From Geotalea uraniireducens Rf4 (GTDB taxonomy: Bacteria > Desulfobacterota > Desulfuromonadia > Geobacterales > Geobacteraceae), in contig NC_009483.1 of the NCBI RefSeq assembly GCF_000016745.1, forward strand, positions 1,800,001 to 1,832,000: a stretch of 32,000 bases of DNA. Direction: 5' to 3'. The notes beneath the pieces were generated by a model. The model saw only the letters and a program-made list of their open reading frames with translations. It did no database searches and had not been told where the DNA came from. Each line of letters opens with the position of its first letter. The stretch's first letter is position 1. Positions 2,035 to 25,067 of the stretch are shown piece after piece. The position numbers and the translations under genes were made by a program.

Positions 2035-2046
2035 CGCTGCCTCACA

Positions 2047-5044: not shown

Positions 5045-5072
5045 CTTTCTTCTCCTTTCGCTGCGTCGGCCA

Positions 5073-6743: not shown

Positions 6744-6746
6744 GGA

Positions 6747-7400
6747 TCACCTCCGCTTGTGCACCGCCCCGTTCTCCAATACCTCATGGGAGACTTCCAG
6801 CATCTTGGTCTGAATCTTCAACGAAACGGAGCGGGCCTGATCGAGGTTAATGCTCATTTCCACCCGGTCTCCGACCTGGAACCGGATGATTCCGCCCTCC
6901 TGCAAAAACTCGGGGGCATCGCCCACCGTCAGGACCGGCCGGTTCTTTAACTGGGTAAGGGCGGTGCGGCGTTTGGCACTGTCTTTGTACGCAACAAAAA
7001 CGATCTGGCATGATGGCAATTTATCCAGCGTGTCTGCGCGGAAGATTTCAAACGGGCGCCCCTGTTCCGTGCGGCTCTTGAATGTCTTCTCCAGAACCTC
7101 GCCAAAGGGGTCGCTGCCCAGGATGCCGATGCTCCAGGGAGAACGGTCGTCGGCGAAAGCATTTGTCGGCCACGTCACGTAGTGGGCAAAATTGCGCAGG
7201 AAGGCGGCTTTCACCTTGATCGGATCGCGCGTCACCAACTCCTGGCCCGCAGCAGATCCTGGCAGGTGCAAAAAGAACAAGAGACCAATCAAACCGGCCC
7301 ATCGGCCGGCCCATGGCAGGAGTCGCGCGCGCGTCCGGACTCTTCCGCACGGCGGGACGCTGTTGACTGCTCCACGAACTATTTGAGCAAGATCTATCAT
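6747..7400 (-). CDS. YfiR/DUF4154-family periplasmic protein
   Basis: 217-aa ORF with a signal-like N-terminus. Motifs typical of DUF4154/YfiR: VKAAFLRNFAHYVTWP, IGILGSDPFGEVLE, QIVFV, PVLTVGD, GGIIRF, and VEMSINLDQARSVSLKIQTKMLEV. It lies 2 nt after the receptor gene stop and 3 nt before the CHASE8 gene start. Confidence 0.8.
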   Translation of the reverse strand: MIDLAQIVRGAVNSVPPCGRVRTRARLLPWAGRWAGLIGLLFFLHLPGSAAGQELVTRDPIKVKAAFLRNFAHYVTWPTNAFADDRSPWSIGILGSDPFGEVLEKTFKSRTEQGRPFEIFRADTLDKLPSCQIVFVAYKDSAKRRTALTQLKNRPVLTVGDAPEFLQEGGIIRFQVGDRVEMSINLDQARSVSLKIQTKMLEVSHEVLENGAVHKRR

Positions 7401-7402
7401 AG

Positions 7403-9598
7403 TTAAAATGTGAGTTTGGCCGAAAGTGCCACCGAAGCCGCTTCCGATGAGTAATCCGAGCCGCGGAAGAAATAAATCCGTTTGTTAAGGGTTTGGTCGG
7501 CCCAGCCCAGAATGTTGAAGGCATCGGCGCGCACCGTCAGGTGTTTCGTCGGACGATATTCCAGCCCGGCATTCCAGAAAACACTCGGGCCGTAGGCGGC
7601 ATCGTAACCCGGGTCGGCCAGCGCAAAACTCCGGGGCTGGCTTTGCGCGCCGTTCCAGTCAGCCAGAGCCTTGGCGCCCGGAAACCCCCAATACGCGCGC
7701 AGCGAAGTACTGGCGGCCCATTTTCCGTTCAACTCCTGGATCAACGCGAGCTTGGTGATGTTGTTGGCCCAGTTGGCCAGGTCGTGCCCGAAGCCATACG
7801 GTTCGGCGGTGATGCCCTGGATGGTGGCGGCGGACGCCAGACTGGAATCGAACAGCTTGGTGTATCCGTGCGAAAAGGTCAGCCTCGTTTTTTCCGAGCG
7901 AAAAGTTATCTCCGGCTCCACACCCCAGATCCTGAAAGTGCCCACTGCTACGGAGCGATTGGCCGCCGCGTCAAAACCAATGGCGTCGTTCTGCTCAATG
8001 AAGACGCTGCACCCGAAATTCCAATGCGCGTCGTGCTGCCGTTCGTAGCGAAACTCGAGGCTGTCCAGGGTTTCAGTGTCTCCCTGTGTGCCGGATCGCA
8101 CATGCTCTTCCCGTAACTCGCCTTCACCGCTGCGGCGCATCGCACGCGCGCCGATCAGCTTGAGCGTGTCTTTGGAACCGGGCGTGAAGACCAGCGCCAG
8201 CCGCGGCGAAAACAGCCAGTCGGTGTACGTGTGCTTGTCTACCCGGGCGCTCGCAAACGTGGTCCACTTCTCGCCCAAATGCCACTGGTGCTCCACCAGA
8301 AAGGAAATAGTATCGGTTTCCCATGCATCTTCGACCGGCGGAATGCCGGGGCCCGGCCCGAAGCCGAGGCGCGGCCCGTCAAACCACATGTGGGAGTATT
8401 CCAGGCCGAAGGCCAGTGACTGCTTTTCGTTCGGCGTCCAAGTTCCCAGCATACGGCCATACGCTTCGTGTTCCTGGCGATTCTGGGGGTCCGCAAATTG
8501 ATCATAAACCCAGAGACGATACTGATACCAATCGTAGCTCACGAACGTCTCCAGGTTGAAGACCTTACTCAGATCTTGTTTGTATTTGGTGGCGGCTGTG
8601 AACTGCCGGTCCAGGTTCGCGCGGCCTTTTTGGGCTATTGAAATATCCACCGTCTGCAACGATGTGCGCATCGGACGCACCACGCCGCCGCCCTGGGTGA
8701 AGCGCGCCCAGATTTCCACCGGACCGTTCACGTAGCTTGCGTGATACTTCATTTTCAAAATATCGCCCGCATCGTGCAGGTTCGGCTCGGGAAACGTCAC
8801 CGGCTGGCCGGAAACAACGGCCGGCCCTGATCCGGGAGTGGCGAACGACTTCCCGAACACATAAGGCGAATCATGCTGGTTCGACCCGCTTTGGTCCGCC
8901 ACGCCGACATAGAGAAACAGTCCCGACTCCTCGTTGAACTTTTGACCGAAACGAAATTCACCGGCGGTAAATTGATCCCGGAAACCCTGGCGGACTTGTG
9001 CGTCGGTCCCTTCAAAAGTCAGACCGTTGTAGGTTTCGAGATTCATAACTCCCGCCAGCGCGCCGGCGCCGTAGGTCGCGGATGCAGGACCATGGACCAA
9101 TGTCACGGAACGAAAGTCACCCAGCAAAGGCAGATCCCGCTCGCTCTCGGCCCCTACGAAAAAGCGATTGTTCATGACTTTGCCGTTTACCCGGAGCAGG
9201 TATTTGTCGTCCCGGTCGCTGATGATCCCCCGAATGCCGAAGTGATCCAGATGCGTGTTGTGCAGGATGAGCTGGGTGTTCGGCGCGTAAATCTCCAGCG
9301 ACTCGTTGAGATTCCGCGCGCCGCTTTGCGCGATGGTGGCTTCGTCCAGAACGGTCGTCTTCGCCGGAACCAACCGAACCTGTGTGGGCGTCAGGGTGGC
9401 CGAAACAATCCGCACGCGGCTCAATTGCTCAATGTCCAAACCGCCAAACTCCTCCGGCTCGCTGTTCGTGCGCTGAATCAGGTTGTGGCCGGCGGGATCG
9501 TCCGCCATTGCGACGGGCAGGGGCTCTGCCGGCACACTGAGCGCCAAAGCGATCGTGAGAGCCGCGCGCGCGATTAAATCATGCAAGGAATCTTTCAT
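7403..9598 (-). CDS. TonB-dependent outer-membrane receptor
   Basis: The ORF track gives 7403..9700. I prefer the ATG at 9598 (MKDSLHDLIARAALTIALALSVPA... signal peptide), which has AGGAGG 7 nt upstream. It has a plug region (TVLDEATIAQSGARNLNESLEIYAP, IRGI) and a long beta-barrel with alternating aromatic patterns. The C-terminus ends in F (SAKLTF). Confidence 0.9.
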   Translation of the reverse strand: MKDSLHDLIARAALTIALALSVPAEPLPVAMADDPAGHNLIQRTNSEPEEFGGLDIEQLSRVRIVSATLTPTQVRLVPAKTTVLDEATIAQSGARNLNESLEIYAPNTQLILHNTHLDHFGIRGIISDRDDKYLLRVNGKVMNNRFFVGAESERDLPLLGDFRSVTLVHGPASATYGAGALAGVMNLETYNGLTFEGTDAQVRQGFRDQFTAGEFRFGQKFNEESGLFLYVGVADQSGSNQHDSPYVFGKSFATPGSGPAVVSGQPVTFPEPNLHDAGDILKMKYHASYVNGPVEIWARFTQGGGVVRPMRTSLQTVDISIAQKGRANLDRQFTAATKYKQDLSKVFNLETFVSYDWYQYRLWVYDQFADPQNRQEHEAYGRMLGTWTPNEKQSLAFGLEYSHMWFDGPRLGFGPGPGIPPVEDAWETDTISFLVEHQWHLGEKWTTFASARVDKHTYTDWLFSPRLALVFTPGSKDTLKLIGARAMRRSGEGELREEHVRSGTQGDTETLDSLEFRYERQHDAHWNFGCSVFIEQNDAIGFDAAANRSVAVGTFRIWGVEPEITFRSEKTRLTFSHGYTKLFDSSLASAATIQGITAEPYGFGHDLANWANNITKLALIQELNGKWAASTSLRAYWGFPGAKALADWNGAQSQPRSFALADPGYDAAYGPSVFWNAGLEYRPTKHLTVRADAFNILGWADQTLNKRIYFFRGSDYSSEAASVALSAKLTF

Positions 9599-9632
9599 CT
9601 GGAGCCTCCTGAAGTTGGGGGCTGAGAACATC

Positions 9633-9929
9633 TCACAGGCATTGACTGAAGAAAGCCCGGCTTCTGCGGCAGAAAATCCCCTTGAAATCCTCCGGCTCAC
9701 CAGCTTTGGCGATCACGCTGGAGCCAACCTTCATGCCTTGCAGGGTCTGCCTCGGGTTGGACAGCAGGAATTGCGGCGTGCGTGCCCGGATTTTGGCTTC
9801 GAAACTGCCGTAGCCGCGCGAAGCCTCCAACTCCGGCTTTGCGCCGGTGACATGCTTGTTTAGGTAATCAATGAACGGTTGATAGAGGCGCTTCCGGCGG
9901 ATTCCCAGCGGGAAACCGGTAACCCAAGG
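9633..9929 (-). pseudogene. Stop-to-stop open frame with coding-like composition but no usable start; possible gene remnant of unknown family
   Basis: The minus-strand frame reads PWVTGFPLGIRRKRLYQPFIDYLNKHVTGAKPELEASRGYGSFEAKIRARTPQFLLSNPRQTLQGMKVGSSVIAKAGEPEDFKGI... It has no ATG or GTG near its 5' end, and the first start-like codon is TTG at 9830. It sits in the 380-bp gap between divergent operons. I do not recognise the family. Confidence 0.2.
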
Positions 9930-11009: not shown

Positions 11010-11723
11010 ATGAAGGGGCATTTCATGGCAGCTGGAAACGAAGATCGATTCACGGGGTTTTCGCAGAACGCGTCGGCCTTTCTGAGGAATCTCGCGGCGA
11101 ATAACAACAAGGCATGGTTCGAGGCGCATCGGCAAGAGTACGAGGAACACCTGCTGGAACCGCTCAAGACGCTGGTCTCCGATCTGTCCGGCTTCATGCT
11201 CTCCATCGACCCGGATTTCATGACCATCCCGGCGGTGGACAGGACCATCTCCAGGATCTACCGCGACACGAGGTTTTCCAAGGACAAATCCCCCTATAAA
11301 ACCACCGTCTGGATAACCTTTAAAAGACCGGTCAGGAACTGGCAGGATTCACCCTGCTATTTCCTGGAACTCGGCACCGATTCCTACCGTTTCGGCATGG
11401 GCTTTTACAGTGCCGCGAAGGATACCATGGATCGGCTGCGGGAGATTGTCGACAAGCGGCCGGCGGAGTTCCTGAAGGTGGTTTCCTTCTTTGCAAAGCA
11501 GGATGTCTTCGTGCTGGAGGGGGAAAAGTACAAAAAGATTTTGAAGGGCACTCTCCCGGCAGATCTTCAGGAGTGGTATCAAAGAAAGAACCTCTATCTG
11601 GTCTGCAACAGAGAGATTGATGAAACCCTTTACGGCAGGAGGCTGGTCGATGACCTGATCTCCGGTTTCGGCATTGTCGCCCCATTGTACCACTACCTTT
11701 GGAAGCTGAAGGCGGGTAAATGA
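11010..11723 (+). CDS. DUF2461 (TIGR02453) family protein
   Basis: 237 aa. Family-typical motifs are FLRNLAANNNKAWFEAHRQEYEEHL and ISRIYRDTRFSKDKSPYKT. The start may be the second ATG at 11025 (GAAGGGG upstream). The last 11 codons and the stop lie inside the left copy of the direct repeat. Confidence 0.85.
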   Translation: MKGHFMAAGNEDRFTGFSQNASAFLRNLAANNNKAWFEAHRQEYEEHLLEPLKTLVSDLSGFMLSIDPDFMTIPAVDRTISRIYRDTRFSKDKSPYKTTVWITFKRPVRNWQDSPCYFLELGTDSYRFGMGFYSAAKDTMDRLREIVDKRPAEFLKVVSFFAKQDVFVLEGEKYKKILKGTLPADLQEWYQRKNLYLVCNREIDETLYGRRLVDDLISGFGIVAPLYHYLWKLKAGK

Positions 11724-11726
11724 TGG
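11690..11726 (+). repeat. Left copy of a 37-bp direct repeat (25 bp perfect) covering the DUF2461 gene 3' end
   Basis: 11690-11714 (CCACTACCTTTGGAAGCTGAAGGCG) is identical to 25123-25147. The alignment extends to 34/37 identities through the shared TGA stop. Confidence 0.85.
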
Positions 11727-12034
11727 AGTTCCACGCCCGGCTGCGTGACCTGGCCGGCGATGTGGATCTGAACGGCCACCCGACCGACCGCCTCCCCAAT
11801 ACCCTCAACGTCAGCTTCCGCGGCGTGGTCGGGGCAGACCTCCTGGCACGGACCCCCGAGATCGCCGCCTCCACAGGTTCTGCCTGCCACGACGGCAGCG
11901 GCGAACTCTCGGGTGTGCTCAAGTCCATGGGGGTCTCCCGCGAACAGGGCTTCGGAGCGGTCCGTTTCAGCCTTGGCCGCCTCACTGCCACCACCGAGAT
12001 CGACAGGGCTCTGCGGGGGATGCGGAACGATTGA
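11720..12034 (+). pseudogene. 5'-truncated cysteine desulfurase (NifS/IscS class-V aminotransferase), C-terminal ~100 aa only
   Basis: The translation contains NGHPTDRLPNTLNVSF, the catalytic-cysteine loop AASTGSACHDGSGELSGVLKSMG, and GAVRFSLGRLTATTEID. About 280 N-terminal residues, including the PLP-lysine region, are missing. The fragment begins exactly at the end of the direct repeat. Confidence 0.75.
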
Positions 12035-12137: not shown

Positions 12138-12912
12138 ATGGCGACTTCCCTGCTGCTCATCAATCTGTTCGTACTCGGTATGGCCGGTGGGTGTTTCTCC
12201 GGCCTTTTGGGGGTCGGCGGTGGCATTATCATGCTGCCGCTCCTCATAACGGTACCCCAGTTGGCAGGGTTTCCCATCGGTCTCCGGCCAGCGGTGGGGG
12301 TTACCATGCTTCTGAGCCTGACAGGTTCCATGTCGGGCATTTTGATCCATCGTAAATATCATGCCCTGGATCTGTCATTGGCCCTTGCTGTAGGTGGGAG
12401 TGCTGCTGTCGGGTCATTGGGAGGAGCGGTCTCCTCCCGCATGGTGAGTGAGCGGCTAATGGCGATACTGTTTGCCCTGATGGCGGTAACGAGCCTGTTG
12501 CTCCTGCTGCTTGCCGAGCCAAGCGGCCCGGAGATTGAAGGAAGCCCGCGCCCGACCCGGTATCCAGCCGCTGCCCTGCTGGGGGGTGGTGTCGGCTTCC
12601 TGGCTGGTATCATCGGCCAGGGGGGGCTTTCATCATCCTTCCCCGTTAATTCATGCGTTCAAGGTACCGGTCCGGACGGCAATCGGCACCAGCGCGGCGG
12701 TCGCTTTTTTGTCGGCACTTGCCGGATTCCTTGGTAAGGGAACCGGTCCGGTACCGCTCCTCTGGGGAATCGCCGTATCATTCGGGGCGCTCCTGGGAGG
12801 GCAGATGGGGGGCATGCTAAGCCACCGGCTATCGACCATCACGTTACGGCGAATCCTTTTCTTGGTTGTTGCAATCAGTGCTGTTCGGATTTTTGTGCAA
12901 GCTCTTTTGTAA
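12138..12912 (+). pseudogene. TauE/SafE (DUF81) sulfite-exporter-family permease, interrupted by a frameshift at a G7 run
   Basis: The ORFs at 12138..12737 and 12511..12912 are the two halves of one protein of about 258 aa. The first half has FSGLLGVGGGIIMLPLL; the second has PLIHAFKVPVRTAIGTSAAVAFLSALAGFLGK...LLGGQMGG. The reading frame changes at GGGGGGG (12620-12626). Removing one G gives a continuous ...GIIGQGGFHHPSPLIHAFKV... Confidence 0.75.
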
Positions 12913-13005: not shown

Positions 13006-13035
13006 TTGACAAAATTGGTAGATAATATATATACT
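13006..13035 (+). promoter_or_regulatory. Sigma70-type promoter in the AT-rich spacer
   Basis: TTGACA (13006-13011), an 18-nt spacer, then TATACT (13030-13035). An alternative -10 is TATATA with a 16-nt spacer. Confidence 0.4.
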
Positions 13036-13380: not shown

Positions 13381-14550
13381 ATGAAACGCAGAGACATTTT
13401 TACAGTTCTGGGATTGTTACTTGTGGCTTTAACTACTGGGTCTTTGCTCTCGGGGTGCAACAGTTCATCGGCAACTGCTGCAACTGCCCCAACAGCGACC
13501 GCGCAATTGAGCGACTATTTCAAGTCAACGGATTGGGTGGCGCTGCATGCCAGCGATCAAAACTTCGTCATCGTTGATACCCGTCCGGCAGCCAAATACA
13601 ATGCCGGTCATATTCCCGGCGCAATCAACATACCGCGCGACCAGTTCTATTTCCCCAGGAAGGTCATCGACGCCGCAACCGGGTCCTACAAAGTCGATTC
13701 CAATGGGCAACCGGTGCAGATCGCATATGACATACCGACCCCGGCCGAATTGATCGACATCCTTACCAGGAACGGCATCACCCCCGATACGACCGTAGTG
13801 GCCTACGACAACGACACATCCTCCTATGGCGGCCGCGTGCCGTGGGTCCTGAAGAGCTACGGTCACGCCAAGGCCTACGTGATCGATGGCGGTATCGACA
13901 AGTGGAAGGATGTCGACGGCCGGACGCTCAGCACGACCGCCGTGATTCCGACTCCCAGCGCCAAACCGTATAAAATTACCAGCTACCAGAACCATCGTGT
14001 CACCAAAAGCGACCTTGCTGCGGTAATCGACACCGCCAACGGCAACGTCACCAAGGCCGGTTATGTGATCTCCGATGTCAGGACGCCCAGTGAATATACG
14101 GGGTTCGTAACCACGGTCACATCCGGCACTGCTTCCACGGGCGCCTGGACGCAAAACAGCACCCCCTTAGTTTACAGTACAAACCAGGGTGCACGTCCGG
14201 GACATATCCCCTATGCAAAGTTCAGCGATTATGAATCCGCCGTTTATACCGACTACATCAACCCGGCTACCGGCCAGCCGGTTGCTAGCACGCTTCAGCC
14301 GGGCAGAAATGTAAAAGTGCTCAAGAGCGCAGCAGAAATACAGGCACATTTTACAAGCCTGGGAATTACACCTGATAAAATCGTTTACAACCACTGCGAA
14401 GGCGGCTTCCGCTCCGGGGTCTACACGCTGATCCTGCTTGGCCTCGGCTATCCCAACGTCTACAACTACGACGGGTCATGGAACGAGTGGTCCATCCAAG
14501 GTGCGGCTTATCCGGTTGTGACCGGCGACGGCCGCGTCAGCGGACCATAA
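13381..14550 (+). CDS. Exported tandem-rhodanese sulfurtransferase, predicted lipoprotein
   Basis: 389 aa with SD AAAGGAG. Signal peptide with lipobox LLSG|C. The N-terminal rhodanese domain is inactive (VIVDTRPAAKYNAGHIPGAINIP...VVAYDND). The C-terminal domain is catalytic, with the loop HCEGGFRSG followed by YDGSWNEW. Confidence 0.9.
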   Translation: MKRRDIFTVLGLLLVALTTGSLLSGCNSSSATAATAPTATAQLSDYFKSTDWVALHASDQNFVIVDTRPAAKYNAGHIPGAINIPRDQFYFPRKVIDAATGSYKVDSNGQPVQIAYDIPTPAELIDILTRNGITPDTTVVAYDNDTSSYGGRVPWVLKSYGHAKAYVIDGGIDKWKDVDGRTLSTTAVIPTPSAKPYKITSYQNHRVTKSDLAAVIDTANGNVTKAGYVISDVRTPSEYTGFVTTVTSGTASTGAWTQNSTPLVYSTNQGARPGHIPYAKFSDYESAVYTDYINPATGQPVASTLQPGRNVKVLKSAAEIQAHFTSLGITPDKIVYNHCEGGFRSGVYTLILLGLGYPNVYNYDGSWNEWSIQGAAYPVVTGDGRVSGP

Positions 14551-14806: not shown

Positions 14807-15772
14807 ATGAAAAGAGGAATCGTAATATCTTTCGTGGCGCTCATGGCGCTGGCAATAACGGTTTTGGCGGGGTGCGGCAGCAGTGTGACCGAGAAGACAC
14901 CGGCAGCTCCGGTAGCAAAAGCGTACAGTGACCCTACCATGGCTACAGACGCGGCAACCCTCAAAGCATCGCTCGGCAAAGCCGGGACTGTCATTATCGA
15001 TGCCAGGTCGGCTTCGGCATTTAGCGCAGGCCATATACCTGGAGCGATCAATGCCGTCTGGCAGTCCTTCGCTACGGTAGGAACCGGAGTTCCGGGAGAT
15101 GCAAACTGGGGAGTTTTGAAAACAGCTGCCGAAATCGGGATCGCACTTGGCAACCTGGGTATTGATGCATCTACGGAGGTTATCGTCTATGCAGATGCTC
15201 CCGGAGGCTGGGGAGAGGATGGCCGTATACTCTGGATGCTGCGCATGGCCGGCGTAACCAAGTCCAAGCTGCTCAATGGCGGATTGAATGGGTGGAAGGC
15301 GGCCGGCTACGGCCTCACCACGGCGGCAACGCCGGCGCCCGCACCGACAACATTGTCCATTGCATCATTTACAGGCGATTATGTCGTTGAAAAGGCCTGG
15401 ATTCTCGCCAACATGGCCGGAAGTGACGTCAAGATCATTGACGCCCGAGACCCGGAGGAGTTTGCAGGTGCTGTCAAGTATGGTGAAAAGCGTGGAGGTC
15501 ACTTGCCGGGCGCTATAAACATGCCTTTCAATACAGCCCTCTATACCAACAATCCAGCCAATCCAGGAATCATCAAGAGTCAGGATGAATTGGAGGCGCT
15601 CTTCACGGCTGCCGGAATCAAGAAGACGGATACCATTGTAAGCTACTGCACCAAGGGTATCCGTTCCGGCCTGATGACGATGATTCTGCGTATGGCAGGC
15701 TACAGCAAGGCGGTCAACTATGACGCGTCATTTTATGAATGGGCCGGCGACGCAACGCTCCCGGTTCAATAA
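14807..15772 (+). CDS. Exported tandem-rhodanese sulfurtransferase, predicted lipoprotein (paralog 2)
   Basis: The track ORF starts at 14762. The ATG at 14807 has GAAAGGAG upstream and yields MKRGIVISFVALMALAITVLAG|C, a classical lipobox. The N-domain is VIIDARSASAFSAGHIPGAIN...VIVYADAPGGWGEDG. The C-domain catalytic loop is YCTKGIRSG. Confidence 0.9.
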   Translation: MKRGIVISFVALMALAITVLAGCGSSVTEKTPAAPVAKAYSDPTMATDAATLKASLGKAGTVIIDARSASAFSAGHIPGAINAVWQSFATVGTGVPGDANWGVLKTAAEIGIALGNLGIDASTEVIVYADAPGGWGEDGRILWMLRMAGVTKSKLLNGGLNGWKAAGYGLTTAATPAPAPTTLSIASFTGDYVVEKAWILANMAGSDVKIIDARDPEEFAGAVKYGEKRGGHLPGAINMPFNTALYTNNPANPGIIKSQDELEALFTAAGIKKTDTIVSYCTKGIRSGLMTMILRMAGYSKAVNYDASFYEWAGDATLPVQ

Positions 15773-15863: not shown

Positions 15864-16703
15864 ATGAAAAAACTTGTTCAATCATCAATTGTGGCCATTC
15901 TGTTTGTGACGGCATCCGCCACTGCCAGCCTGGCCGGCGCCTGGACCGCCAAACAGCATGCCTTCTACGAAAAGCTGGCCTTCAACTACTACTATTCCCA
16001 CGAGACCTTCGATTCGTCGGGCAACCGCAATGGGACGCCCAATAACGGGAAATTCACCGATTACGACATCTGCAATTACTTCGAGTATGGGCTGTTCGAC
16101 AACCTGACCGTGATCAACTCGCTGGCCTACAAGTGGCTGGAGAACGACAATAACTTGGCCCGCACCAAGGGTTACGGCCTGGGAGACGTGGACCTCGGGT
16201 TGCGCTACAAACTGCTGGACAGCGAGAAGATCGGCATCGTTGCCACGCAACTGCTCGTCAAGATTCCGGGGACATATGATAAAAAGGACCCGTTGCCGCT
16301 CGGCAACGGCCAGTTTGACACGGAAATCCGGCTGCTCTACGGCCGTTCGCTCTATCCGCTGATCCCCGGTTACGGCAACGTGGAGTTCGGCTACCGCTGG
16401 CGGGCCGAGGGCCCTTCCGACGAGATCCGCTATCTTGTTGAATTCGGCGTGGACGTTACCAGGGATTTTTACACCCGCGCCAAGCTGGACGGGACCCTCA
16501 GCGTGGATAACGGTAAAAAACTGGACGGCAGCGGCAACCCCACGGCTACCAACAACTTCGACCTCGGCAAGCTGGACCTGACCGTTGGTTACAAGGTTAC
16601 TCCGGCATGGGGGGTGGAGATCAGCTATCGGCCAGACATCTACGGACAAAATATCGCGGCCGGCGCGAATTATTCCCTTGCGCTCTATTTCAAGACACCA
16701 TAG
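15864..16703 (+). CDS. Outer-membrane beta-barrel channel (MetA/phenol-degradation-like transporter family)
   Basis: ATG at 15864. The signal peptide is MKKLVQSSIVAILFVTASATASLA|G. Alternating amphipathic strands are present (GLGDVDLGLRYKL, NVEFGYRW, LDLTVGYKV, GVEISYRP, and the C-terminal YSLALYFKTP). The size (about 255 aa mature) and motifs fit small substrate-channel barrels. Confidence 0.7.
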   Translation: MKKLVQSSIVAILFVTASATASLAGAWTAKQHAFYEKLAFNYYYSHETFDSSGNRNGTPNNGKFTDYDICNYFEYGLFDNLTVINSLAYKWLENDNNLARTKGYGLGDVDLGLRYKLLDSEKIGIVATQLLVKIPGTYDKKDPLPLGNGQFDTEIRLLYGRSLYPLIPGYGNVEFGYRWRAEGPSDEIRYLVEFGVDVTRDFYTRAKLDGTLSVDNGKKLDGSGNPTATNNFDLGKLDLTVGYKVTPAWGVEISYRPDIYGQNIAAGANYSLALYFKTP

Positions 16704-16724: not shown

Positions 16725-16840
16725 GGCAAATCCCCCTCAATCCCCCTTTTGTAAAGGGGGAAGCATTTAGATCCCCCCTTTATGAAAAGGGGAAGCATTT
16801 AGATCCCCCCTTTATGAAAGGGGGGGAGGGGGGATTTGCC
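16725..16840. repeat. Array of three tandem 31-32-bp hairpin repeats enclosed by a 14-15-bp inverted repeat (REP/MITE-like element)
   Basis: The units are TCCCCCTTTTGTAAAGGGGGAAGCATTTAGA (16741-), TCCCCCCTTTATGAAAAGGGGAAGCATTTAGA (16772-) and TCCCCCCTTTATGAAAGGGGGGG (16804-). Each contains a C5-6TTT...AAAG4-7 stem. The flanks GGCAAATCCCCCTC (16725-16738) and GAGGGGGGATTTGCC (16826-16840) are reverse complements. Spurious translations give the PPF(V/M)KGG-type peptides often seen for such repeats. Confidence 0.85.
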
Positions 16841-16877
16841 GTTAAGGTCGCTAATCAAGAAAAAACAGGACATTACC

Positions 16878-18707
16878 ATGAGCATTATCACTAACAACCA
16901 TCTTCGCCCCGGTCTGCAAGAACAGATTGCCGCAACAAAATCGGGTTGCACCAATTGCGGCGAATGCGTCCGGGAGTGTGCCTTCCTCAAGAAATATGGC
17001 ACACCCAAATCTATTGCAGACAGCTTCGATGCAATTGATCCAAAATCCCTTGCTCGCTCCTTCGAGTGCAGCCTGTGCGGGCTCTGCTCGGTGGTCTGTC
17101 CGGAACAGCTCGATCTGGACGGACTGTTTCTGGAGATGCGGCGCGAGGCGGTGGACCGGGGCTTCGGGGACTACCCGGAGCATTCACCCCTGCTGACCTA
17201 CGAACGGCTGGGAACATCCCGCCGTTTCAGCCTGTACCGGTTGCCCCAAGGGTGCACGACGATCTTCTTCCCCGGCTGCTCCCTGTCCGGCACCCGCCCC
17301 GATGGCGTCAACAGGGTTTTCGCCGAGCTTCAGAAGACTGATCCAACCGTGGGTATCGTCTTTGACTGCTGTTTGAAGCCGTCCCATAGCCTGGGGCGCG
17401 AGCAGTACACTGGCGCCATGTTCGAGGAGATGAACAACTGGCTTGTGCAGCAGGGGGTGAAAGAGGTGCTGGTGGCATGCCCCAACTGCCAGGTGATGTT
17501 CACCTCGCTAGGCCAGGGGCTGAAGGTGAGAACCGTCTGGGAGTCCCTCGCCGAGTCCGGACTGCAGCCGGAAGGAGTGTCCGGTACGGTGACGGTTCAT
17601 GACCCCTGTGTTATCCGCGATGCACAACCGGTGCATCAGGCCGTGCGTACCCTGCTCAATCGCCAGGGACTGATGGTGGAGGAGATGCCCCATTCCGGCA
17701 GAACCACCGTCTGCTGCGGTCAGGGGGGGGCGGTCAACCTGCTGAACCCGCAACTGGCCGCTTCATGGGGAGAACTGCGCAAAAGAGAGGCGGCCGGCAG
17801 GAGAATCATCACCTACTGCGCCGGCTGTGTCCAGGCCCTGGGGGGGCACACGCCGACCAATCACCTGGTGGATATCCTGTTCGCCCCGAATCAGACCCTG
17901 GCCGGAAAGAAAAAGGGCGCCGGAGCCCCCTTTACCTATCTGAACCGGCTTCGACTCAAAAGAGCCTTTAAACGCAAGGAGGGATATGCAGTGACACGAG
18001 AACGAACATTTGTACCGGAACAGGGGCAGCCAAAGAAACGCTCCTGGAAACCGCTGATCTTTCTGGTCTTGCTGGTGGCAGCCGTCGCCGGCGTGCACCT
18101 GTCGGGAGCGGCCCAGTATCTTCAGCAGGAAAAATTGCAGGCATTGATTGCCTCGTACGGAGTCCTGGCCCCGGCTATTTACATCCTGCTTTATGCCCTG
18201 GCGCCGGTATTGTTCCTGCCCGGCCTGCCGATCACCATTGTGGGCGGTATTCTGTTCGGCCCGGTCTGGGGCGTGGTTTATACCATTACCGGCGCGACCA
18301 TCGGCGCCTCTCTGGCATTTCTGGTTGCGCGCTACGTGGCCCGCGACTGGGTGGCAGCCAAGTTGACCGGGCCCACGTGGGAAAAGCTCGACAGCGAAGT
18401 GGCCCAGCACGGCTGGAAGGTGGTGGCCTTCACACGACTGATTCCGGCCTTCCCCTTCAATCTGTTGAACTACGCCTTCGGACTGACCAAGGTCCCGTTT
18501 GTTCATTATATGGTTGCCACCTTTGTCTTCATGCTGCCTGCCTGCATCGCCTTCATCGTTTTCTCCAGCTCATTGCTGGGGCTGATCAAAGGCAAGGTTT
18601 CCCCGACGGCTCTGCTGGGCATCGGCCTGATTGTGCTGGTGTCGCTGATTCCGGTGGTCTACCGGCGCTTCAAGGGGCGTCAGGCGGCCGAGGCGGAAGC
18701 TGAGTGA
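16878..18707 (+). CDS. Fusion protein: 2x[4Fe-4S] ferredoxin motif + two CCG (HdrD/GlpC/LutA-like) cysteine-rich domains, fused to a C-terminal TVP38/TMEM64 (DedA-superfamily) membrane domain
   Basis: Start taken at the ATG at 16878; the track's TTG at 16836 is possible, and the SD is weak for both. Fe-S motifs: CTNCGECVREC and CSLCGLCSVVCP. CCG units: FFPGCS...FDCCLKP...ACPNC and HDPCV...VCCGQGG...YCAGC. From about residue 395 there are several TM helices with the TVP38/SNARE-associated signature LFLPGLPITIVGGILFGPVWGVVYTITGATIGASLAFLVARY...FTRLIPAFPFNLLNYAFGLT. Confidence 0.85.
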   Translation: MSIITNNHLRPGLQEQIAATKSGCTNCGECVRECAFLKKYGTPKSIADSFDAIDPKSLARSFECSLCGLCSVVCPEQLDLDGLFLEMRREAVDRGFGDYPEHSPLLTYERLGTSRRFSLYRLPQGCTTIFFPGCSLSGTRPDGVNRVFAELQKTDPTVGIVFDCCLKPSHSLGREQYTGAMFEEMNNWLVQQGVKEVLVACPNCQVMFTSLGQGLKVRTVWESLAESGLQPEGVSGTVTVHDPCVIRDAQPVHQAVRTLLNRQGLMVEEMPHSGRTTVCCGQGGAVNLLNPQLAASWGELRKREAAGRRIITYCAGCVQALGGHTPTNHLVDILFAPNQTLAGKKKGAGAPFTYLNRLRLKRAFKRKEGYAVTRERTFVPEQGQPKKRSWKPLIFLVLLVAAVAGVHLSGAAQYLQQEKLQALIASYGVLAPAIYILLYALAPVLFLPGLPITIVGGILFGPVWGVVYTITGATIGASLAFLVARYVARDWVAAKLTGPTWEKLDSEVAQHGWKVVAFTRLIPAFPFNLLNYAFGLTKVPFVHYMVATFVFMLPACIAFIVFSSSLLGLIKGKVSPTALLGIGLIVLVSLIPVVYRRFKGRQAAEAEAE

Positions 18708-19462
18708 TAGCGGCGCCCCCCGACATAGCTCTGATCATACCGGCCAGGAACGAGGAACTCTCCCTGCCGGGAGTGCTCGGGAATGTGCCGACTGAGATCA
18801 CGCGGGTTGTGGTGGTTGACAACGGATCGACAGACGCGACGGCACAGGTTGCCGCTGAATATGGCGCCCATGTCGTCACCGAACCGGTGGCCGGTTACGG
18901 CAGGGCCTGCCTGGCCGGATTGGCCTTTCTGCGGAACGATCCGCCGGACATCGTGGCTTTTGTCGATGCCGACGGCAGCGATGAGCTGTCGCGCCTGCCC
19001 GACCTGATCGCCCCGGTTTCCGTCGGAGAGCAGGAACTTGTGCTGGGGCGGCGGATTCCGGTTGTCACGGCGGCGCTTAGTTTTCAGCAGCGCTTCGGGC
19101 ACCTGCTGGCCACCGTGTTGATACGTCTGTTTTGGAGATACCGCTACAGAGACCTTGGTCCGATGCGGGTCATCAGTTGGATGGCGCTGAATCGGTTGAA
19201 TATGGCTGACCAAGCTTTCGGCTGGACGGTGGAAATGCAGGTCAGGGCACTCAAACATGGGCTGCGGATACGGGAGATTGACGTCCCTTATCATCAGCGC
19301 ACTGCCGGAAAGTCAAAGATCAGTCGGACGATCACCGGTACGGTCAAGGCCGGGAGCACTATTCTGTGGGTTATCGGCCGTGAATTGGTGCACGGGTTAC
19401 AGCATAAAAGACAAGAGGCAGCGGCAGCAGACACGGTTATTACTGCCGAGCAGGCACAATAA
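18704..19462 (+). CDS. Small GT-A fold family-2 glycosyltransferase, DPM1/GtrB/ArnC-like (candidate polyprenyl-phosphate sugar synthase)
   Basis: 252 aa with a GTG start overlapping the upstream stop (GTGA). Motifs: ALIIPARNEE, VVVVDNGSTDAT, GYGRACLAG, FVDADGSD, DLGPMRVISW and EIDVPYHQRTAGKSKIS. No TM segments are evident. Confidence 0.8.
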   Translation: MIAAPPDIALIIPARNEELSLPGVLGNVPTEITRVVVVDNGSTDATAQVAAEYGAHVVTEPVAGYGRACLAGLAFLRNDPPDIVAFVDADGSDELSRLPDLIAPVSVGEQELVLGRRIPVVTAALSFQQRFGHLLATVLIRLFWRYRYRDLGPMRVISWMALNRLNMADQAFGWTVEMQVRALKHGLRIREIDVPYHQRTAGKSKISRTITGTVKAGSTILWVIGRELVHGLQHKRQEAAAADTVITAEQAQ

Positions 19463-19476
19463 AGGAGAATAACGCC

Positions 19477-20367
19477 ATGCAGATTATTGCAAAGTTTATA
19501 CAGCAGGCAAAACGAGCCGGTTTACATCATGTAATCATGGTTTTATTGATGGTAGTAACGGTAATCGTTTCCTGTTTCTCGGCTGCCACGGCGGCCGATC
19601 TGAGACTGATCGATGCAGCTGCGTTGAAGGGTAATTCAGCAAAATGGGTCATACTTGATGCCCGTCCCAAGGCCGACTGGGAAACCGGCCACATTCCGGG
19701 AGCCATCCAGTTTTCATGGGACAATTATACCCGCACCGACGCCAAGGGGGTAAAGTACAGCTCTTTTCCACCCCAGGAACTGGCCGTAGCACTGGCCGGA
19801 CTGGGGATTGACGAAAAGACCCCGGTAGTGGTGTACGGGGACGCCGACAAGAGCTGGGGCGGCGAAGGGTATAATATCTGGTTGCTTTCCTGGCTTGGTC
19901 ACAAGGGACCCATCCGGCTGCTGAATGGCGGCATCCAGGCCTGGCGCAACCAGAATTTGCCTCTGGCCAAGGGGCCGGAAAAGCCTGCCGCCAAAAAGGC
20001 CCGTTACCAGGTGGATCTCAAGCCCCCGTACATCGTCTCCACGGAAGAGGTGCAGAAGGGAAAAGGTTCTTTTGTGCTGGTTGATGTCCGCTCGACCTTT
20101 GAATGGATCAAAGGCAGGATACCCGGCGCCATTCATATACCCTGGGAGGATTTTTACACCGGCAAGGATCACCACCCGCTTCCTCCGGCGGAACTGAAAA
20201 AGCTGCTTGCCAAGCATGGCGTGGATACCTCCAAACCGGTGGTTTATTACTGCCTGGGCGGGGTGCGCTCTGCCTACGCCTGGACGGCCCACCAGTTGGC
20301 AGGGCTGCCTGAAGCCCGCAACTACAAGGGAAGCTGGGCAGCCTGGGAGAAGCGGGCGGGGCAGTAA
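19477..20367 (+). CDS. Exported tandem-rhodanese sulfurtransferase (paralog 3; signal anchor or lipoprotein)
   Basis: 296 aa with SD AAGGAG. Hydrophobic N-terminus VIMVLLMVVTVIVS|C (lipobox-like IVSC), followed by FSAATA. The N-domain is VILDARPKADWETGHIPGAIQF...VVVYGDADKSWGGEG. The C-domain catalytic loop is YCLGGVRSA, followed by YKGSWAAWE. Confidence 0.9.
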   Translation: MQIIAKFIQQAKRAGLHHVIMVLLMVVTVIVSCFSAATAADLRLIDAAALKGNSAKWVILDARPKADWETGHIPGAIQFSWDNYTRTDAKGVKYSSFPPQELAVALAGLGIDEKTPVVVYGDADKSWGGEGYNIWLLSWLGHKGPIRLLNGGIQAWRNQNLPLAKGPEKPAAKKARYQVDLKPPYIVSTEEVQKGKGSFVLVDVRSTFEWIKGRIPGAIHIPWEDFYTGKDHHPLPPAELKKLLAKHGVDTSKPVVYYCLGGVRSAYAWTAHQLAGLPEARNYKGSWAAWEKRAGQ

Positions 20368-20476: not shown

Positions 20477-20992
20477 ATGAGTTTTTTAATATGTCGAATC
20501 GCACACTGCCTGATACTGTCTGCCCTGCTGCTTGCTCTGTCAGTCATGGCATGTCATGCAGTCGAATCCAGGTCAAAAACGCCAACGTCCAGCGCCAAAA
20601 AGAAGCTGCTGCTGTTCGCCAAGAATCCTGCCACCTGGGCCATTGTCAAGGGGGGCGCCAGCGGCAAGATGGTCTACCGCGAGTCATCCGGCGCCTTCAG
20701 CCTGAGTGCTGCCGGCCTCCGCCCCCGTTCGGCCTACGCCATGATAAGGTACGCCGATGCTCCTCCAAAAGCCGAGATTCTCGCCCGGGGAGAGAGTGAT
20801 GTTCGCGGCAATCTGGAACTGAACGGAGTCTGGCGAAACTGGACCAGAAAGTTCTGGCTTGTGTCGGGCGAGGATGTGGTGGGCTTGCCCGGTGAAGCCG
20901 GTTCGCTCCGCGCCTGGCGGCCGGAACGCTATCTTTTCGAGGAAAAACAGATCGGCATACCCTGCCAATGCCCCGAACCAGAGGAACCTTAA
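20477..20992 (+). CDS. Exported hypothetical protein (signal peptide, possible lipobox VMA|C), no recognised family
   Basis: 171 aa. The N-terminus is CLILSALLLALSVMAC. The mature part is rich in beta-type alternation, and the C-terminus has CQCPEPEEP. Its stop overlaps the start of the radical SAM gene (TAATG), and the coding-like composition continues through that junction. Confidence 0.6.
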   Translation: MSFLICRIAHCLILSALLLALSVMACHAVESRSKTPTSSAKKKLLLFAKNPATWAIVKGGASGKMVYRESSGAFSLSAAGLRPRSAYAMIRYADAPPKAEILARGESDVRGNLELNGVWRNWTRKFWLVSGEDVVGLPGEAGSLRAWRPERYLFEEKQIGIPCQCPEPEEP

Positions 20993-22017
20993 TGACAGCA
21001 ATGTTCAAAAAGAAAGTCGAGGCGGTGGATGACCGCTTCACCACATTCCATAGACTGGAAACGCTCCAGGTGAATCTGGGCGATCTCTGCAACCTGAGTT
21101 GCGCCCACTGTCATCATCATGCCTCGCCGCAAGGCGCCCGGATCATGGGCCGGGACGTCATGGAAAAGATCACTGCGTTCCTGGCGCGGCATCCCGGTCT
21201 GACGCTGGACATAACCGGCGGCTGCCCGGAAATGAACCCGGACTTCCGGTACTTCGTCGAGGCATCGGCAGGACACGCCGCACGTCGCATCATCCGCAGC
21301 AATCTGGCCATTGCCCTTGAACCCGGCATGGAATGGCTGCCTGACTTTTATCGCGAACAGGCGCTGGTGGTGATGGCGTCGCTTCCCTGCTACGAAGCGG
21401 AGAACGTGGAGAAACAGAGGGGAGGCGGGGTCTTCATGCAAAGTATCGAGGTGTTGCGGCGCCTCAATCGGCAGGGCTATGGCAGCGAACTGGAACTCCA
21501 CCTCGTCCATAACCCGGGCAACGGCTCCGTGTCCGGATCACGTGATATGCTGGAGCAGCATTACCGTACGGAACTTCTACAGCGTTTTGGTGTCAGCTTC
21601 AGTCGGCTCCACTGCATGAACAATACCCCCATCGGACGTTTTCGGGACAACCTGGAGCGCAGGGGAACCTATCAGCGCTATATCGAGCATCTGGCGGAAA
21701 AATTCAATCCGCTGGCCACAGAGCAAATCATGTGCCGAACGCTGGTCAGTGTCGGCTGGGATGGGGTGCTATACAACTGCGACTTCAATCTGGCTGCCGC
21801 ATTGCCGTTGCAACGGGCGGATGGCTCGCTCGTGACCATCGACCATGCCGACGAGGCGATTGTCCCCGGCAGCGGAATCCGGATGGCTGCGCACTGTTTC
21901 AGTTGCACCGCCGGCGAGGGTTCGGGGTGCGGCGGGTCATTGGCTGCATCCGGCAACAAGGTATATGGATCAGCGAACAGCAATGATCAGGGCGTGAGCG
22001 CATGCTGTCAGCAATAA
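20992..22017 (+). CDS. arsS: ArsS-family radical SAM/Cys-rich domain protein (TIGR04167, rSAM/selenodomain family), Cys form
   Basis: The ATG at 20992 (GAGGAA upstream) is preferred over the track start at 20968. Radical SAM motif LQVNLGDLCNLSCAHCHH. Family-typical blocks: LDITGGCPEMNPDFRYFV, SLPCYEAENVEKQRGGGVF, YGSELELHLVHNP, MCRTLVSVGWDGVLYNCDFN. The C-terminal motif HCFSCTAGEGSGCGG has TGC (21928-21930) at the position that is Sec in some members. Confidence 0.8.
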   Translation: MTAMFKKKVEAVDDRFTTFHRLETLQVNLGDLCNLSCAHCHHHASPQGARIMGRDVMEKITAFLARHPGLTLDITGGCPEMNPDFRYFVEASAGHAARRIIRSNLAIALEPGMEWLPDFYREQALVVMASLPCYEAENVEKQRGGGVFMQSIEVLRRLNRQGYGSELELHLVHNPGNGSVSGSRDMLEQHYRTELLQRFGVSFSRLHCMNNTPIGRFRDNLERRGTYQRYIEHLAEKFNPLATEQIMCRTLVSVGWDGVLYNCDFNLAAALPLQRADGSLVTIDHADEAIVPGSGIRMAAHCFSCTAGEGSGCGGSLAASGNKVYGSANSNDQGVSACCQQ

Positions 22018-23534: not shown

Positions 23535-25067
23535 TTACTGACCGGGTTCTGCAGTTGGCTGCCGAGCACCGCTGAGAGCCCTGCTGAGAAGGTATGCCGT
23601 TAGCGGCGCCAGGAAGACCGCTGCCGTCACCTGCGGATTCTCGGTCCACTGCCCCAGGATGAAATAGGGGATCTGAACCTGGTACGTCAGGAAGACCGCC
23701 CAACAGAGTACCAGTCCGGCCGGACCTGCGCAGAACGGCAGAAATACCGCCAGGCAGAGGGCGTACCATGGTTGCAGGGTCGGGGTAAGCAGCAATAGCG
23801 CCATGGCGATGGCATAACAGGCTTCCATCGCCTGACGTAATCTGTTGACCGGTGATAGTCCGTGATTGATGCTGCCGGCCAAACGGAGAATGATTCCGAC
23901 GGCAACCAGCAGAAAACAGGATGACAACAGCAGGCGGGCAATCGTTCCCGAGCCGGTCATGGTACGAAGCGTGTTGAAGGCAAAACCGGCAAATTCCCAA
24001 TTGCGGGCATAGGCATCCAGGCTGGCGGTCATGTTGACCAAGTGCGGCAGGAACGGCAACACGAGTGCTGCCAGAGTCGCGATAAATCCGGCTGCAAAAT
24101 GTCTGCGTCGCTCATTCGGGACCAGCAGAAACAGTACCGGCGTCAACACCAGGGGAAACAGCTTCACCAAGCCGGCGCAGGCCAGCAACGCTCCGGACAA
24201 CAGAAACGGCCACCGCCGCGGAGCCGTCGCAGAAGCGCTCTGCCGATCCATTGCAAGCAGGCAGAAGGAACCTATCAGCATGGCAAGACCTGCTCCGTCC
24301 ACGTGCCCAGACCCGGCGATCTCCAGCACCGGCAGTGGATTCCATGCATAGAGTACAGCCCGCCATGCCGGCATCTCAAGCCGCTTCAACAGCATAACCA
24401 ACAGGGCGCACAGTCCCAGGTCGAGCAGCGCCAGAAAAGCCTTGAGGCCTGTGATGGTTCCACCAGTCGCTGCTCCCCCGGCAAACACCAACTGGGCCGT
24501 TGGTGGGTAAATGGTGACATAATCCGGGTGATTGATCATTGAGTGAACGGCTTTCAGTCCGGGCAGCGGCGTTATGACGGATGGCGAAGCGGCATAGGGA
24601 TTGACTCCCCGCAGCAGGTTACTGCCATCCCACAGGTAGCGGTAGATGTCATCGGACAGTTGCGGCGGACTGAACAGGAACAACAGGCGCAACACGAGCC
24701 CCACAGCAAGGATGACGGCCGGCGACCAAAGGACCTTTGCGCGCTCTCCGCAATAGAGGGCAAGCGTCAACAGCGTCGCCATCAATGCCGTGACGCCAAT
24801 CAGCAGCGGCACCGCCAGGCGTAACTCCGGCTGAACAGCAAGTATGCCACAGGAGGAGATCAGGAAGACAGGAAGTGCTACCGTAACAATATTTCCTGCA
24901 AGAGCCGTAATCGTTAGGTTTTTTTTGGCTGTAGCCATGACCGTCACGTATTTCCTAATCGTATTCAGCAGTTCTTGGCGTCTGTCCGTTACAATCGGTC
25001 TCAGCCAGGCCACCGGTTCATTCAAAGTCTTTCCTGAAACAAACAAAAAGTCAAGAATTACAGTCAA
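23535..25067 (-). CDS. Polytopic GT-C-type membrane glycosyltransferase (DUF2029/GT87/mannosyltransferase-like)
   Basis: 510-aa ORF with more than 10 predicted TM helices. The first periplasmic loop carries SDDIYRYLWDGSNLLRGVNPYA, and further on YPPTAQ and WNPLPVLEIAGSGHVDG. These are typical of polyprenyl-phosphate-sugar-dependent GT-C enzymes. The start is uncertain: TTG at 25067 or ATG at 24938. Confidence 0.7.
   Translation of the reverse strand: MTVILDFLFVSGKTLNEPVAWLRPIVTDRRQELLNTIRKYVTVMATAKKNLTITALAGNIVTVALPVFLISSCGILAVQPELRLAVPLLIGVTALMATLLTLALYCGERAKVLWSPAVILAVGLVLRLLFLFSPPQLSDDIYRYLWDGSNLLRGVNPYAASPSVITPLPGLKAVHSMINHPDYVTIYPPTAQLVFAGGAATGGTITGLKAFLALLDLGLCALLVMLLKRLEMPAWRAVLYAWNPLPVLEIAGSGHVDGAGLAMLIGSFCLLAMDRQSASATAPRRWPFLLSGALLACAGLVKLFPLVLTPVLFLLVPNERRRHFAAGFIATLAALVLPFLPHLVNMTASLDAYARNWEFAGFAFNTLRTMTGSGTIARLLLSSCFLLVAVGIILRLAGSINHGLSPVNRLRQAMEACYAIAMALLLLTPTLQPWYALCLAVFLPFCAGPAGLVLCWAVFLTYQVQIPYFILGQWTENPQVTAAVFLAPLTAYLLSRALSGARQPTAEPGQ

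Follow-up and report, generated by a model that had tools for sequence, protein, structure and literature searches.

We know of no function for the bacterial DedA proteins of the YdjX/TVP38 type (COG0398), although two eukaryotic relatives, TMEM41B and VMP1, are medically interesting lipid scramblases. The delivery of selenide to SelD in vivo is an open question. The commonest fusion partners of COG0398 proteins are domains of pyridine-nucleotide disulfide oxidoreductases (PF07992/PF02852), and the subfamily has been linked to aerobic metabolism, and the same paper assigned the undecaprenyl phosphate (UndP) flippases DedA/UptA to COG0586, whose members can be fused to PAP2 domains or to rhodanese, the latter with unclear meaning (Todor et al. 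2023, mBio, PMC10127716). When the eight E. coli paralogues were tested for UndP transport, high-level rescue was given by DedA only, with small effects of YqjA and YabI; YdjX and YdjZ were included and their rescue was not reported, and other E. coli DedA paralogues were proposed to act on other lipids (Roney and Rudner). For selenium transport, YedE/YedF have been proposed as candidates (Lin et al. 2015, PMC5322559). Here we describe a stretch of 32,000 nucleotides from Geotalea uraniireducens Rf4 (contig NC_009483.1, positions 1,800,001 to 1,832,000 of the forward strand; hereafter the window) that carries a single gene joining an HdrD-like iron-sulfur (Fe-S)/CCG module to a YdjX/TVP38-type VTT membrane domain. 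What is new is the Fe-S/CCG module as a redox partner within the known theme of COG0398 proteins joined to reductases, together with an informative gene context. Tentatively, and at somewhat less than an even chance, we read the fusion as a membrane core that links periplasmic carriers of sulfur or selenium to reductive release in the cytoplasm.

The fusion gene occupied an open reading frame at 16836..18707 of the forward strand, with an ATG at 16878 whose methionine is shared with homologues of the same 609-amino-acid length (Table 1). Both domain assignments of a preliminary description, made from the sequence without database searches, were confirmed by Pfam: Fer4_17 at residues 24-79 scored 40.9 bits (cut-off 22.2), CCG, in two stretches, 48.9 bits (cut-off 20.6), and VTT_dom (PF09335) at residues 447-563 scored 92.3 bits (cut-off 33.9). 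The two 4Fe-4S and two CCG motifs noticed in its N-terminal part were complete. The ferredoxin-type motifs read C24xxC27xxC30xxxC34 and C64xxC67xxC70xxxC74-P, each CCG motif had the full five-cysteine set (C134...C164C165...C201xxC204 and C244...C279C280G...C314xxC317), and all 18 cluster cysteines (eight ferredoxin-type and ten CCG) were invariant in alignments reaching down to 33% identity. The two ferredoxin-type sites should bind cubane [4Fe-4S] clusters as an electron wire, to judge by their motifs. Among NCBIfam models, the Fe-S half best matched NF045663 ('diclust_near_Sec'), with 231 bits over model positions 310-664 of 759, meaning that only the dicluster/CCG part of the model was matched and that the fusion remained below the whole-protein cut-off of 530 bits. 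As the DsrK, TfrB, GlcF and LdhH models scored far lower, and far below their own cut-offs, the Fe-S half is a distinct clade of HdrD-like proteins.

AlphaFold2 modelled residues 10-375 with a predicted local distance difference test score (pLDDT) of ~90, and Foldseek with this N-terminal module returned the folds of Mycobacterium smegmatis EtfD (E 8e-11 over 388 aligned columns), a LutA model (8e-7) and HdrB (7e-5); a sequence search of the PDB with the fusion gave just a weak CCG match, to EtfD. In EtfD, Thr replaces the second cysteine of the first CC pair, which leads to a linear 3Fe-4S cluster, and a His completes the second cluster, whereas HdrB retains all cysteines; these Thr and His substitutions make the EtfD clusters non-catalytic, and the protein serves as an electron wire to menaquinone (EtfD paper, PDB 9ojn). 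The fusion has a CC pair in both CCG motifs and, at the CXXC corresponding to the His site of EtfD, a CPNC without His, a predicted ligand set that is consistent with, but no proof of, Hdr-type non-cubane clusters. CCG domains alone, for which the preliminary description had named disulfides or small redox substrates, are not diagnostic of disulfide chemistry, the best structural match being an electron wire.

The same match raises the possibility that electrons pass between the Fe-S/CCG module and menaquinone at the membrane, as in HdrDE, DsrMK and EtfD, while the VTT domain acts as an anchor or isoprenoid-quinone site and the protein feeds or drains a thiol/persulfide relay of MauE/DoxX and CX4C rhodaneses. 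EtfD is itself an Fe-S/CCG module on a membrane domain and reduces menaquinone; MauE/DoxX-like proteins with a CGC motif and TsoB-like CX4C rhodaneses flank 12-14 of the 57 fusion loci compared below, and TsoB itself is a rhodanese/DsbD-like fusion. We nevertheless consider quinone exchange improbable, because the fusion, unlike EtfD, retains the full Hdr-type cysteine set, its VTT part has no invariant His or Cys, and Pfam and NCBIfam gave no cytochrome-b-type (haem-b) match in the fusion protein or its gene cluster, the membrane part being VTT. In addition, this window lacks MauE and RhdS, and we know of no evidence that VTT domains bind quinones.

Hydrophobic segments of the fusion begin at residue 391, after the basic linker. 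In a comparison that covered E. coli YdjX and YdjZ, the VTT half was 35% identical to YdjX (4e-33) and 33% identical to YdjZ, and homologues are named 'YdjX (TVP38/TMEM64 family)/Fe-S oxidoreductase' in IMG, which is the COG0398 name, and 'VTT domain-containing protein' only by NCBI. The DedA precedents invoked in the preliminary description came from other family members, UndP flipping having been shown for DedA/UptA of COG0586. The selenite-resistance link of Ledgham in 2005 is said to concern a protein named DedA. The two re-entrant loops typical of the superfamily have their turns at a conserved Pro-Gly and at a pair of prolines 1-2 residues apart (Okawa et al.), and the signatures in the fusion are P448-G449 and P523xxP526, of which P448, P523 and P526 were invariant in both alignments and G449 was at least 90% conserved; a GWK motif and R520 were also invariant across fusion homologues. 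Both termini of TMEM41B are cytosolic, a topology that would leave the Fe-S module cytoplasmic whether it is N-terminal or C-terminal, and the K/R-rich linker places the module, by prediction, on the cytoplasmic side.

More than 120 full-length homologues were found at 69-97% identity, including a Geobacter sp. AOG2 protein at 81%; a profile search added many fusion homologues at 53-59%, and ~10 full-length fusion clusters occurred among 50%-identity representatives at 37-55%. The spread of the fusion, a question raised earlier, was gauged by a scan of species-representative genomes, at least 52 of which carried the two halves in a single frame. Hosts were Geobacteraceae, Desulfuromonadales, Desulfobacterales, Syntrophales, Syntrophorhabdus, Desulfarculus, Syntrophobacteraceae and Thermodesulfovibrionales/Nitrospirota. 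The fusion, previously called unusual, is not rare: in anaerobes of the Desulfobacterota and Nitrospirota it is widespread. Some genomes have split or partial forms, such as a VTT-only gene (locus L057) and stand-alone Fe-S/CCG genes; nevertheless, the idea that two genes were joined by an assembly or frameshift artefact is refuted by this conservation, with one frame and a conserved linker in hundreds of independent assemblies and 52 species genomes, and has next to no probability left.

The reverse order, with VTT first and Fe-S/CCG second, was found in five 50%-cluster representatives (P0137, P0140, P0141, P0188 and P0261), and such repeated joining, in either order, argues strongly that the modules act together. 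Fe-S/CCG relatives have other partners as well: one is fused to an MprF-like 'LPG_synthase_TM' domain, with a separate VTT gene downstream that overlaps it by 4 bp, and another to a receiver domain. The majority of matches among the 50% representatives were stand-alone Fe-S/CCG proteins of ~370 amino acids; the neighbourhood of one of these (P0150) was uninformative. The closest VTT-only relatives adjoin a gene for a MerA-like flavoprotein, across gaps of 60-110 bp, in five loci. This exchange of redox partner between Fe-S/CCG, MerA-like flavoprotein and AhpD-like protein supports a thiol/disulfide-type step as a theme of the subfamily and suggests that anaerobes use the Fe-S version of the redox partner. 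Four fusion proteins of ~810-830 amino acids (P0121, P0125, P0283 and P0301) had an extra hydrophobic C-terminal extension of ~220 residues; Pfam reported a second VTT stretch for P0121. Some of the closest VTT-only relatives were VTT-DUF3047 fusions (L061 9986-11449; P0242) encoded directly after a MerA-like flavoprotein gene. One protein (P0127; L005 1787-3775) combined Fe-S/CCG, one transmembrane segment and two rhodanese domains; we gave it little weight since it lies on a single 4-kb contig and could reflect a natural deletion joining the fusion to a downstream rhodanese, or a chimera.

To describe the gene context, open reading frames neighbouring 57 fusion loci were clustered and the clusters named with NCBIfam (YdjY through NF040466); the 27 loci flanked on each side by 8 kb or more formed a well-flanked subset. 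A rhodanese or YdjY gene was present at 48 of the 57 loci and at 26 of the 27 well-flanked ones. Multi-domain rhodaneses occurred at 22 loci, TsoB-like single rhodaneses with a CX4C loop at 14, YdjY-domain proteins, usually encoded directly downstream, at 20, and a secreted protein of ~280 amino acids at 20. Less frequent were MauE/DoxX-like membrane proteins (12 loci), the ArsS (10), TIGR04282 (9) and TIGR04283 (8) families, and YedF (7), SelD (6) and NifS-like proteins (5). A recurrent pair adjoined the fusion at 12-14 loci (for example L044 1841-2362 and L023 12406-12909): a secreted rhodanese of one domain, whose loop reads CGFVKC (CX4C), together with a MauE/DoxX-like membrane protein bearing a CGC motif. 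Gene orders included fusion-YdjY-NifS-YedF-MauE-rhodanese-ArsS-SelD (L027), fusion-NifS-YedF-MauE-rhodanese-SelD (L036), TIGR04283-TIGR04282-ArsS-fusion (L017 and L023) and, around a fusion of reverse order, rhodanese, fusion, SelD, YedF (L090); SelD, YedF and NifS-like genes lay on the strand of the fusion in L018, L027 and L036. The ArsS gene of L027 (16446-17330) is probably a selenoprotein form, as an in-frame TGA stands where the ArsS of the window has Cys (GFT*NG versus GSGCGG). A tblastn search with one E. coli YedE query, of limited sensitivity, found no YedE homologue in the window or any fusion locus.

These neighbours suggest the movement and reduction of sulfur or selenium between periplasm and cytoplasm. 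We postulate a conserved envelope system in which the fusion, almost always partnered by a secreted rhodanese or by a YdjY-domain protein, would form the inner-membrane core. A periplasmic chalcogen, most likely selenium and otherwise sulfane sulfur, would first be loaded onto the active-site cysteine of the rhodanese as a perselenide, persulfide or selenotrisulfide-type adduct. It would then be handed through or along the VTT domain and be released reductively at the paired CCG clusters through S-Se or S-S cleavage, for use in the cytoplasm by SelD, YedF and NifS-like proteins or by ArsS, TIGR04282 and TIGR04283 enzymes. In anaerobes, the Fe-S/CCG module would correspond to those flavoprotein disulfide reductases that other bacteria have fused to COG0398 domains or encode next to them. 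Whereas the architecture, its conservation, the topology argument and the gene associations are established, we infer the substrate, the direction of transfer and the catalytic chemistry from this context; the coupling of thiol, persulfide or selenium reduction to a membrane step, proposed in the preliminary description, gains circumstantial support from the rhodanese/YdjY association and from SelD and YedF beside both fusion orders. Selenium is further suggested by the lack of YedE nearby, by the in-frame TGA in the L027 ArsS gene and by 'diclust_near_Sec' as the best NCBIfam match of the Fe-S half. A more specific and more doubtful proposal is a previously unrecognised route of selenium (or sulfane-sulfur) acquisition in anaerobes, with the fusion as its membrane core, in which rhodanese/YdjY proteins would deliver to VTT and the Hdr-like clusters would release selenide for SelD, replacing YedE.

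Several points weigh against chalcogen transfer. SelD or YedF lay within 10 kb at just 7 of the 57 loci (5 of the 27 well-flanked) and neither is found in this window, no electron donor was identified for the two cubane clusters, and CCG proteins such as EtfD serve as electron wires (EtfD paper). The VTT half of the AlphaFold2 model had a pLDDT of 50-68, in contrast to the Fe-S module, so that the domain interface could not be read and we draw no structural argument on coupling. DedA-superfamily members of known activity move lipids, as scramblases or UndP flippases, and not small solutes (Todor et al. 2023, PMC10127716; Roney and Rudner). About half of the loci, this window included, carry glycosyltransferases instead (13 of the 27 well-flanked), which points to lipid-linked glycan chemistry; a stand-alone Fe-S/CCG homologue (L088 context) adjoins a rhodanese, a glycosyltransferase family 2 (GT2) and a GT-C gene, and the fusion of the same Fe-S/CCG clade to the MprF-like flippase transmembrane domain, with its coupled VTT gene, fits such chemistry too.

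The last four observations also speak for the main alternative, a serious rival that we judge to be rather unlikely: that VTT flips polyprenyl-phosphate or polyprenyl-phosphate-hexose for glycosylation by the co-encoded GT2 and GT-C enzymes, with the Fe-S/CCG module gating, sensing redox or modifying a lipid-linked intermediate, and with the rhodaneses as glycosylation targets or accessory factors. Translational coupling to a DPM1-like GT2 through GTGA had already been proposed, and the overlap was indeed seen at 18704-18707 (GT2 start GTG at 18704, fusion stop TGA at 18705-18707); this 4-bp stop/start overlap with a polyprenyl-phosphate hexose synthase-like gene recurs in the relatives L001, L002 and L003. 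Small GT2, CesA-like GT2 and GT-C genes of the GT87 family co-occur in shuffled order (16, 16 and 18 of the 57 loci), ManC is inserted in L002, and the cluster has no other flippase candidate. Yet half of the well-flanked loci lack such glycosyltransferases while keeping rhodanese or YdjY, high-level UndP rescue came from DedA alone and was not reported for YdjX or YdjZ, no known lipid-carrier step requires an Hdr-type Fe-S module, and lipid flipping does not account for SelD/YedF next to both fusion orders. The several readings considered here are not fully exclusive. Given the polyprenyl-phosphate-hexose GT2, GT87 GT-C and CesA-like GT2 of the operon, VTT may also handle that lipid carrier, and the cluster of the window may combine chalcogen handling with envelope glycosylation.

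Arsenic provides a further alternative, in which the module transports or reduces arsenic species, rather than selenium or sulfur, for an ArsS/ArsM organoarsenical pathway. ArsS, TIGR04282 or TIGR04283 genes were near 16 of the 57 fusion loci (13 of the 27 well-flanked), with ArsS also in this window, and among the loci of the closest VTT-only relatives, 9/28 have ArsM-like methyltransferases, 13/28 ArsR-rhodanese regulators and 3/28 ArsS. The window cluster, however, has no ArsM, arsenate reductase or arsenite pump, TIGR04167 includes selenoprotein forms, and SelD and YedF mark selenium, not arsenic. The family names reportedly go back to work with an ArsS from a cyanobacterium, and the corresponding function of the anaerobe members is putative. 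An arsenic function is in our view very improbable.

In the window, the operon runs from two rhodanese lipoproteins and the ~279-amino-acid secreted protein through the fusion and GT2 to a third rhodanese, the 171-amino-acid protein, ArsS and the CesA-like GT2, with short gaps or overlaps between genes, and the GT-C gene is convergent with it (Table 1). All three rhodaneses have a signal or lipoprotein N-terminus and an intact active-site cysteine loop. The 171-amino-acid secreted protein was considered as a divergent YdjY and ruled out, no similarity being found. The best sigma-70-like match of the region (13006-13035; TTGACA, 18-nucleotide spacer, TATACT; 11/12) lies ~350 nucleotides upstream of the first rhodanese gene and may be a candidate promoter of the whole cluster. 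Three tandem hairpin units of ~31-32 nucleotides (16740-16830; ATCCCCC-TTTATGAAA-GGGGG then AAGCATTTAG), which look REP-like or terminator-like, occupy the 175-nucleotide gap between the ~279-amino-acid protein gene and the start codon of the fusion. Upstream, a TauE/SafE-like sulfite-exporter gene extends over two overlapping frames (12138..12737 and 12511..12912) and is either a frameshifted pseudogene or a sequencing error, and a 104-amino-acid open reading frame at 11720-12034 resembles the C-terminal part of a NifS-type cysteine desulfurase (SACHDGSGELSGVL...); at five other loci, NifS-like genes of full length adjoin the fusion. The flanks at 472-9700 and 28496-30951 contain genes for several histidine kinases with PAS/GAF domains, a YfiR-like protein, a TonB-dependent receptor and a regulator of the OmpR type, and no link between these genes and the fusion cluster was seen.

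Table 1. Coordinates, strand and supporting evidence for the fusion gene, its parts and neighbouring genes in the window.
Feature	Position	Strand	Basis and remarks
Fusion gene, Fe-S/CCG (HdrD-like) and YdjX/TVP38-type VTT	16878..18707	+	609 amino acids; open reading frame, Pfam, NCBIfam, homologue alignment
Two CxxCxxCxxxC(P) motifs, residues 24-79, predicted cubane [4Fe-4S] x2	16947..17114	+	Pfam Fer4_17/Fer4_8; eight Cys invariant
CCG motif 1, residues 134-204	17277..17489	+	C134, C164-C165, C201xxC204
CCG motif 2, residues 238-320	17589..17837	+	C244, C279-C280-G, C314xxC317; best Pfam CCG stretch
Basic juxtamembrane linker, residues 343-390, K/R-rich	17904..18047	+	Sequence; AlphaFold2 confidence falls here
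VTT/DedA-superfamily membrane domain, residues 391-600	18048..18677	+	PF09335; YdjX/YdjZ identity; invariant prolines
Tandem-domain rhodanese lipoprotein, LSGC lipobox, loop CEGGFRS	13381..14550	+	Pfam/NCBIfam, sequence
Tandem-domain rhodanese lipoprotein, LAGC lipobox, loop CTKGIRS	14807..15772	+	Pfam/NCBIfam, sequence
Secreted ~279-amino-acid protein, signal peptide, tentatively outer-membrane barrel-like	15864..16703	+	No family match; in 20/57 loci
Soluble GT2, 252 amino acids, polyprenyl-phosphate hexose synthase-like (AglJ/DPM1/PpgS-like)	18704..19462	+	Pfam/NCBIfam; in 16/57 loci
Tandem-domain rhodanese, N-terminal hydrophobic anchor or signal, loop CLGGVRS	19477..20367	+	Pfam/NCBIfam, sequence
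Secreted 171-amino-acid protein, C-terminal CxC, no family assigned	20477..20992	+	Conserved in such clusters
ArsS-family radical SAM (TIGR04167)	20968..22017	+	382 bits (cut-off 300); Cys form, GSGCGG at known selenocysteine position
Membrane GT2, CesA/PgaC-like, 492 amino acids	22002..23480	+	Pfam/NCBIfam; in 16/57 loci
GT-C, MptA/B (GT87) family	23535..24887 (start uncertain)	-	63% identity to L003 gene with PF26314/PF09594; 17 other loci

The locus offers a lead on two questions: what bacterial TVP38/YdjX proteins do, and how SelD is supplied with selenide. Recurrence in both domain orders and the same rhodanese/YdjY partnership from E. coli to Geobacter, with the redox partner swapped, lead to a testable hypothesis: that VTT proteins of this subfamily act together with a reductase of the thiol/disulfide type, located in the cytoplasm, on sulfur or selenium species derived from the periplasm. 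If the selenium route were true, it would give a first function to bacterial COG0398/TVP38 proteins, among them those of ydjXYZ-ynjE in E. coli and those fused to flavoproteins in aerobes; if instead VTT flips a lipid carrier, the fusion would reveal redox control of a step in polyprenyl-phosphate glycosylation, likewise a novelty.

Compared with known systems, a parallel in gene content is the E. coli K-12 locus ydjX-ydjY-ydjZ-ynjA(AhpD-like)-ynjBCD-ynjE(rhodanese), which like the fusion loci encodes a YdjX-type VTT protein, YdjY, a multi-domain rhodanese and a thiol-redox protein, although its genes are separate, its redox partner is the AhpD-like YnjA and an ABC (ATP-binding cassette) transporter is present. 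It is a parallel and not an answer, since no function for that locus was found in the literature. YedE/YedF resemble the fusion as a proposed membrane entry of selenium upstream of SelD, and YedF and SelD flank several fusion loci; YedE has no sequence relation to the fusion, which would be an alternative membrane component and a functional analogue only. TsoB (NF045694), a rhodanese/DsbD-like fusion selenoprotein, likewise couples a periplasmic rhodanese to a transmembrane redox device, and its N-terminal domain matches the single-domain rhodanese neighbours (104 bits), which have CX4C where TsoB has UxxxxU. Its membrane device, however, is DsbD-like rather than VTT with Fe-S/CCG, and this rhodanese type is missing from the window. 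The UptA/DedA flippases share the DedA-superfamily fold and two re-entrant loops, and the fusion adjoins a polyprenyl-phosphate sugar GT2, but they belong to a different subfamily and the COG0586 proteins discussed have no Fe-S module.

On the redox side, HdrD (HdrDE), DsrK (DsrMK) and EtfD, like the fusion, have two ferredoxin-type [4Fe-4S] motifs and two CCG domains in a membrane-attached module, and the fusion resembles HdrB in its full five-cysteine CCG sets of the catalytic type, with a fold matching both EtfD and HdrB; the membrane partner of HdrDE, DsrMK and EtfD is a haem-b cytochrome, whereas that of the fusion is a VTT domain. The closest sequence relative of the Fe-S/CCG half is NF045663 (pyridine nucleotide-disulfide oxidoreductase/dicluster-binding), whose N-terminal flavoprotein half is absent from the fusion, which carries VTT instead. 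No paper or curated family for the Fe-S/CCG-VTT fusion was found, and literature searches that extended to ydjXYZ/ynjE function and to selenium-DedA and ArsS-TVP38 links turned up no account of this architecture. It was therefore rightly called uncharacterised, save that a published parallel exists in the COG0398/disulfide oxidoreductase fusions remarked on by Todor et al. (2023), the nearest description. As in those fusions, a cytoplasmic disulfide-reductase-type module is joined to a membrane domain of the YdjX/TVP38 kind, by IMG name and by identity to YdjX, and MerA-like genes adjoin the closest VTT-only relatives in the loci analysed here. Their redox partner is an FAD/NAD(P)H enzyme, whereas that of the fusion is an unrelated, oxygen-sensitive Fe-S/CCG module, and the hosts of the fusion are strict anaerobes, which calls into question the published tie of COG0398 to aerobic metabolism.

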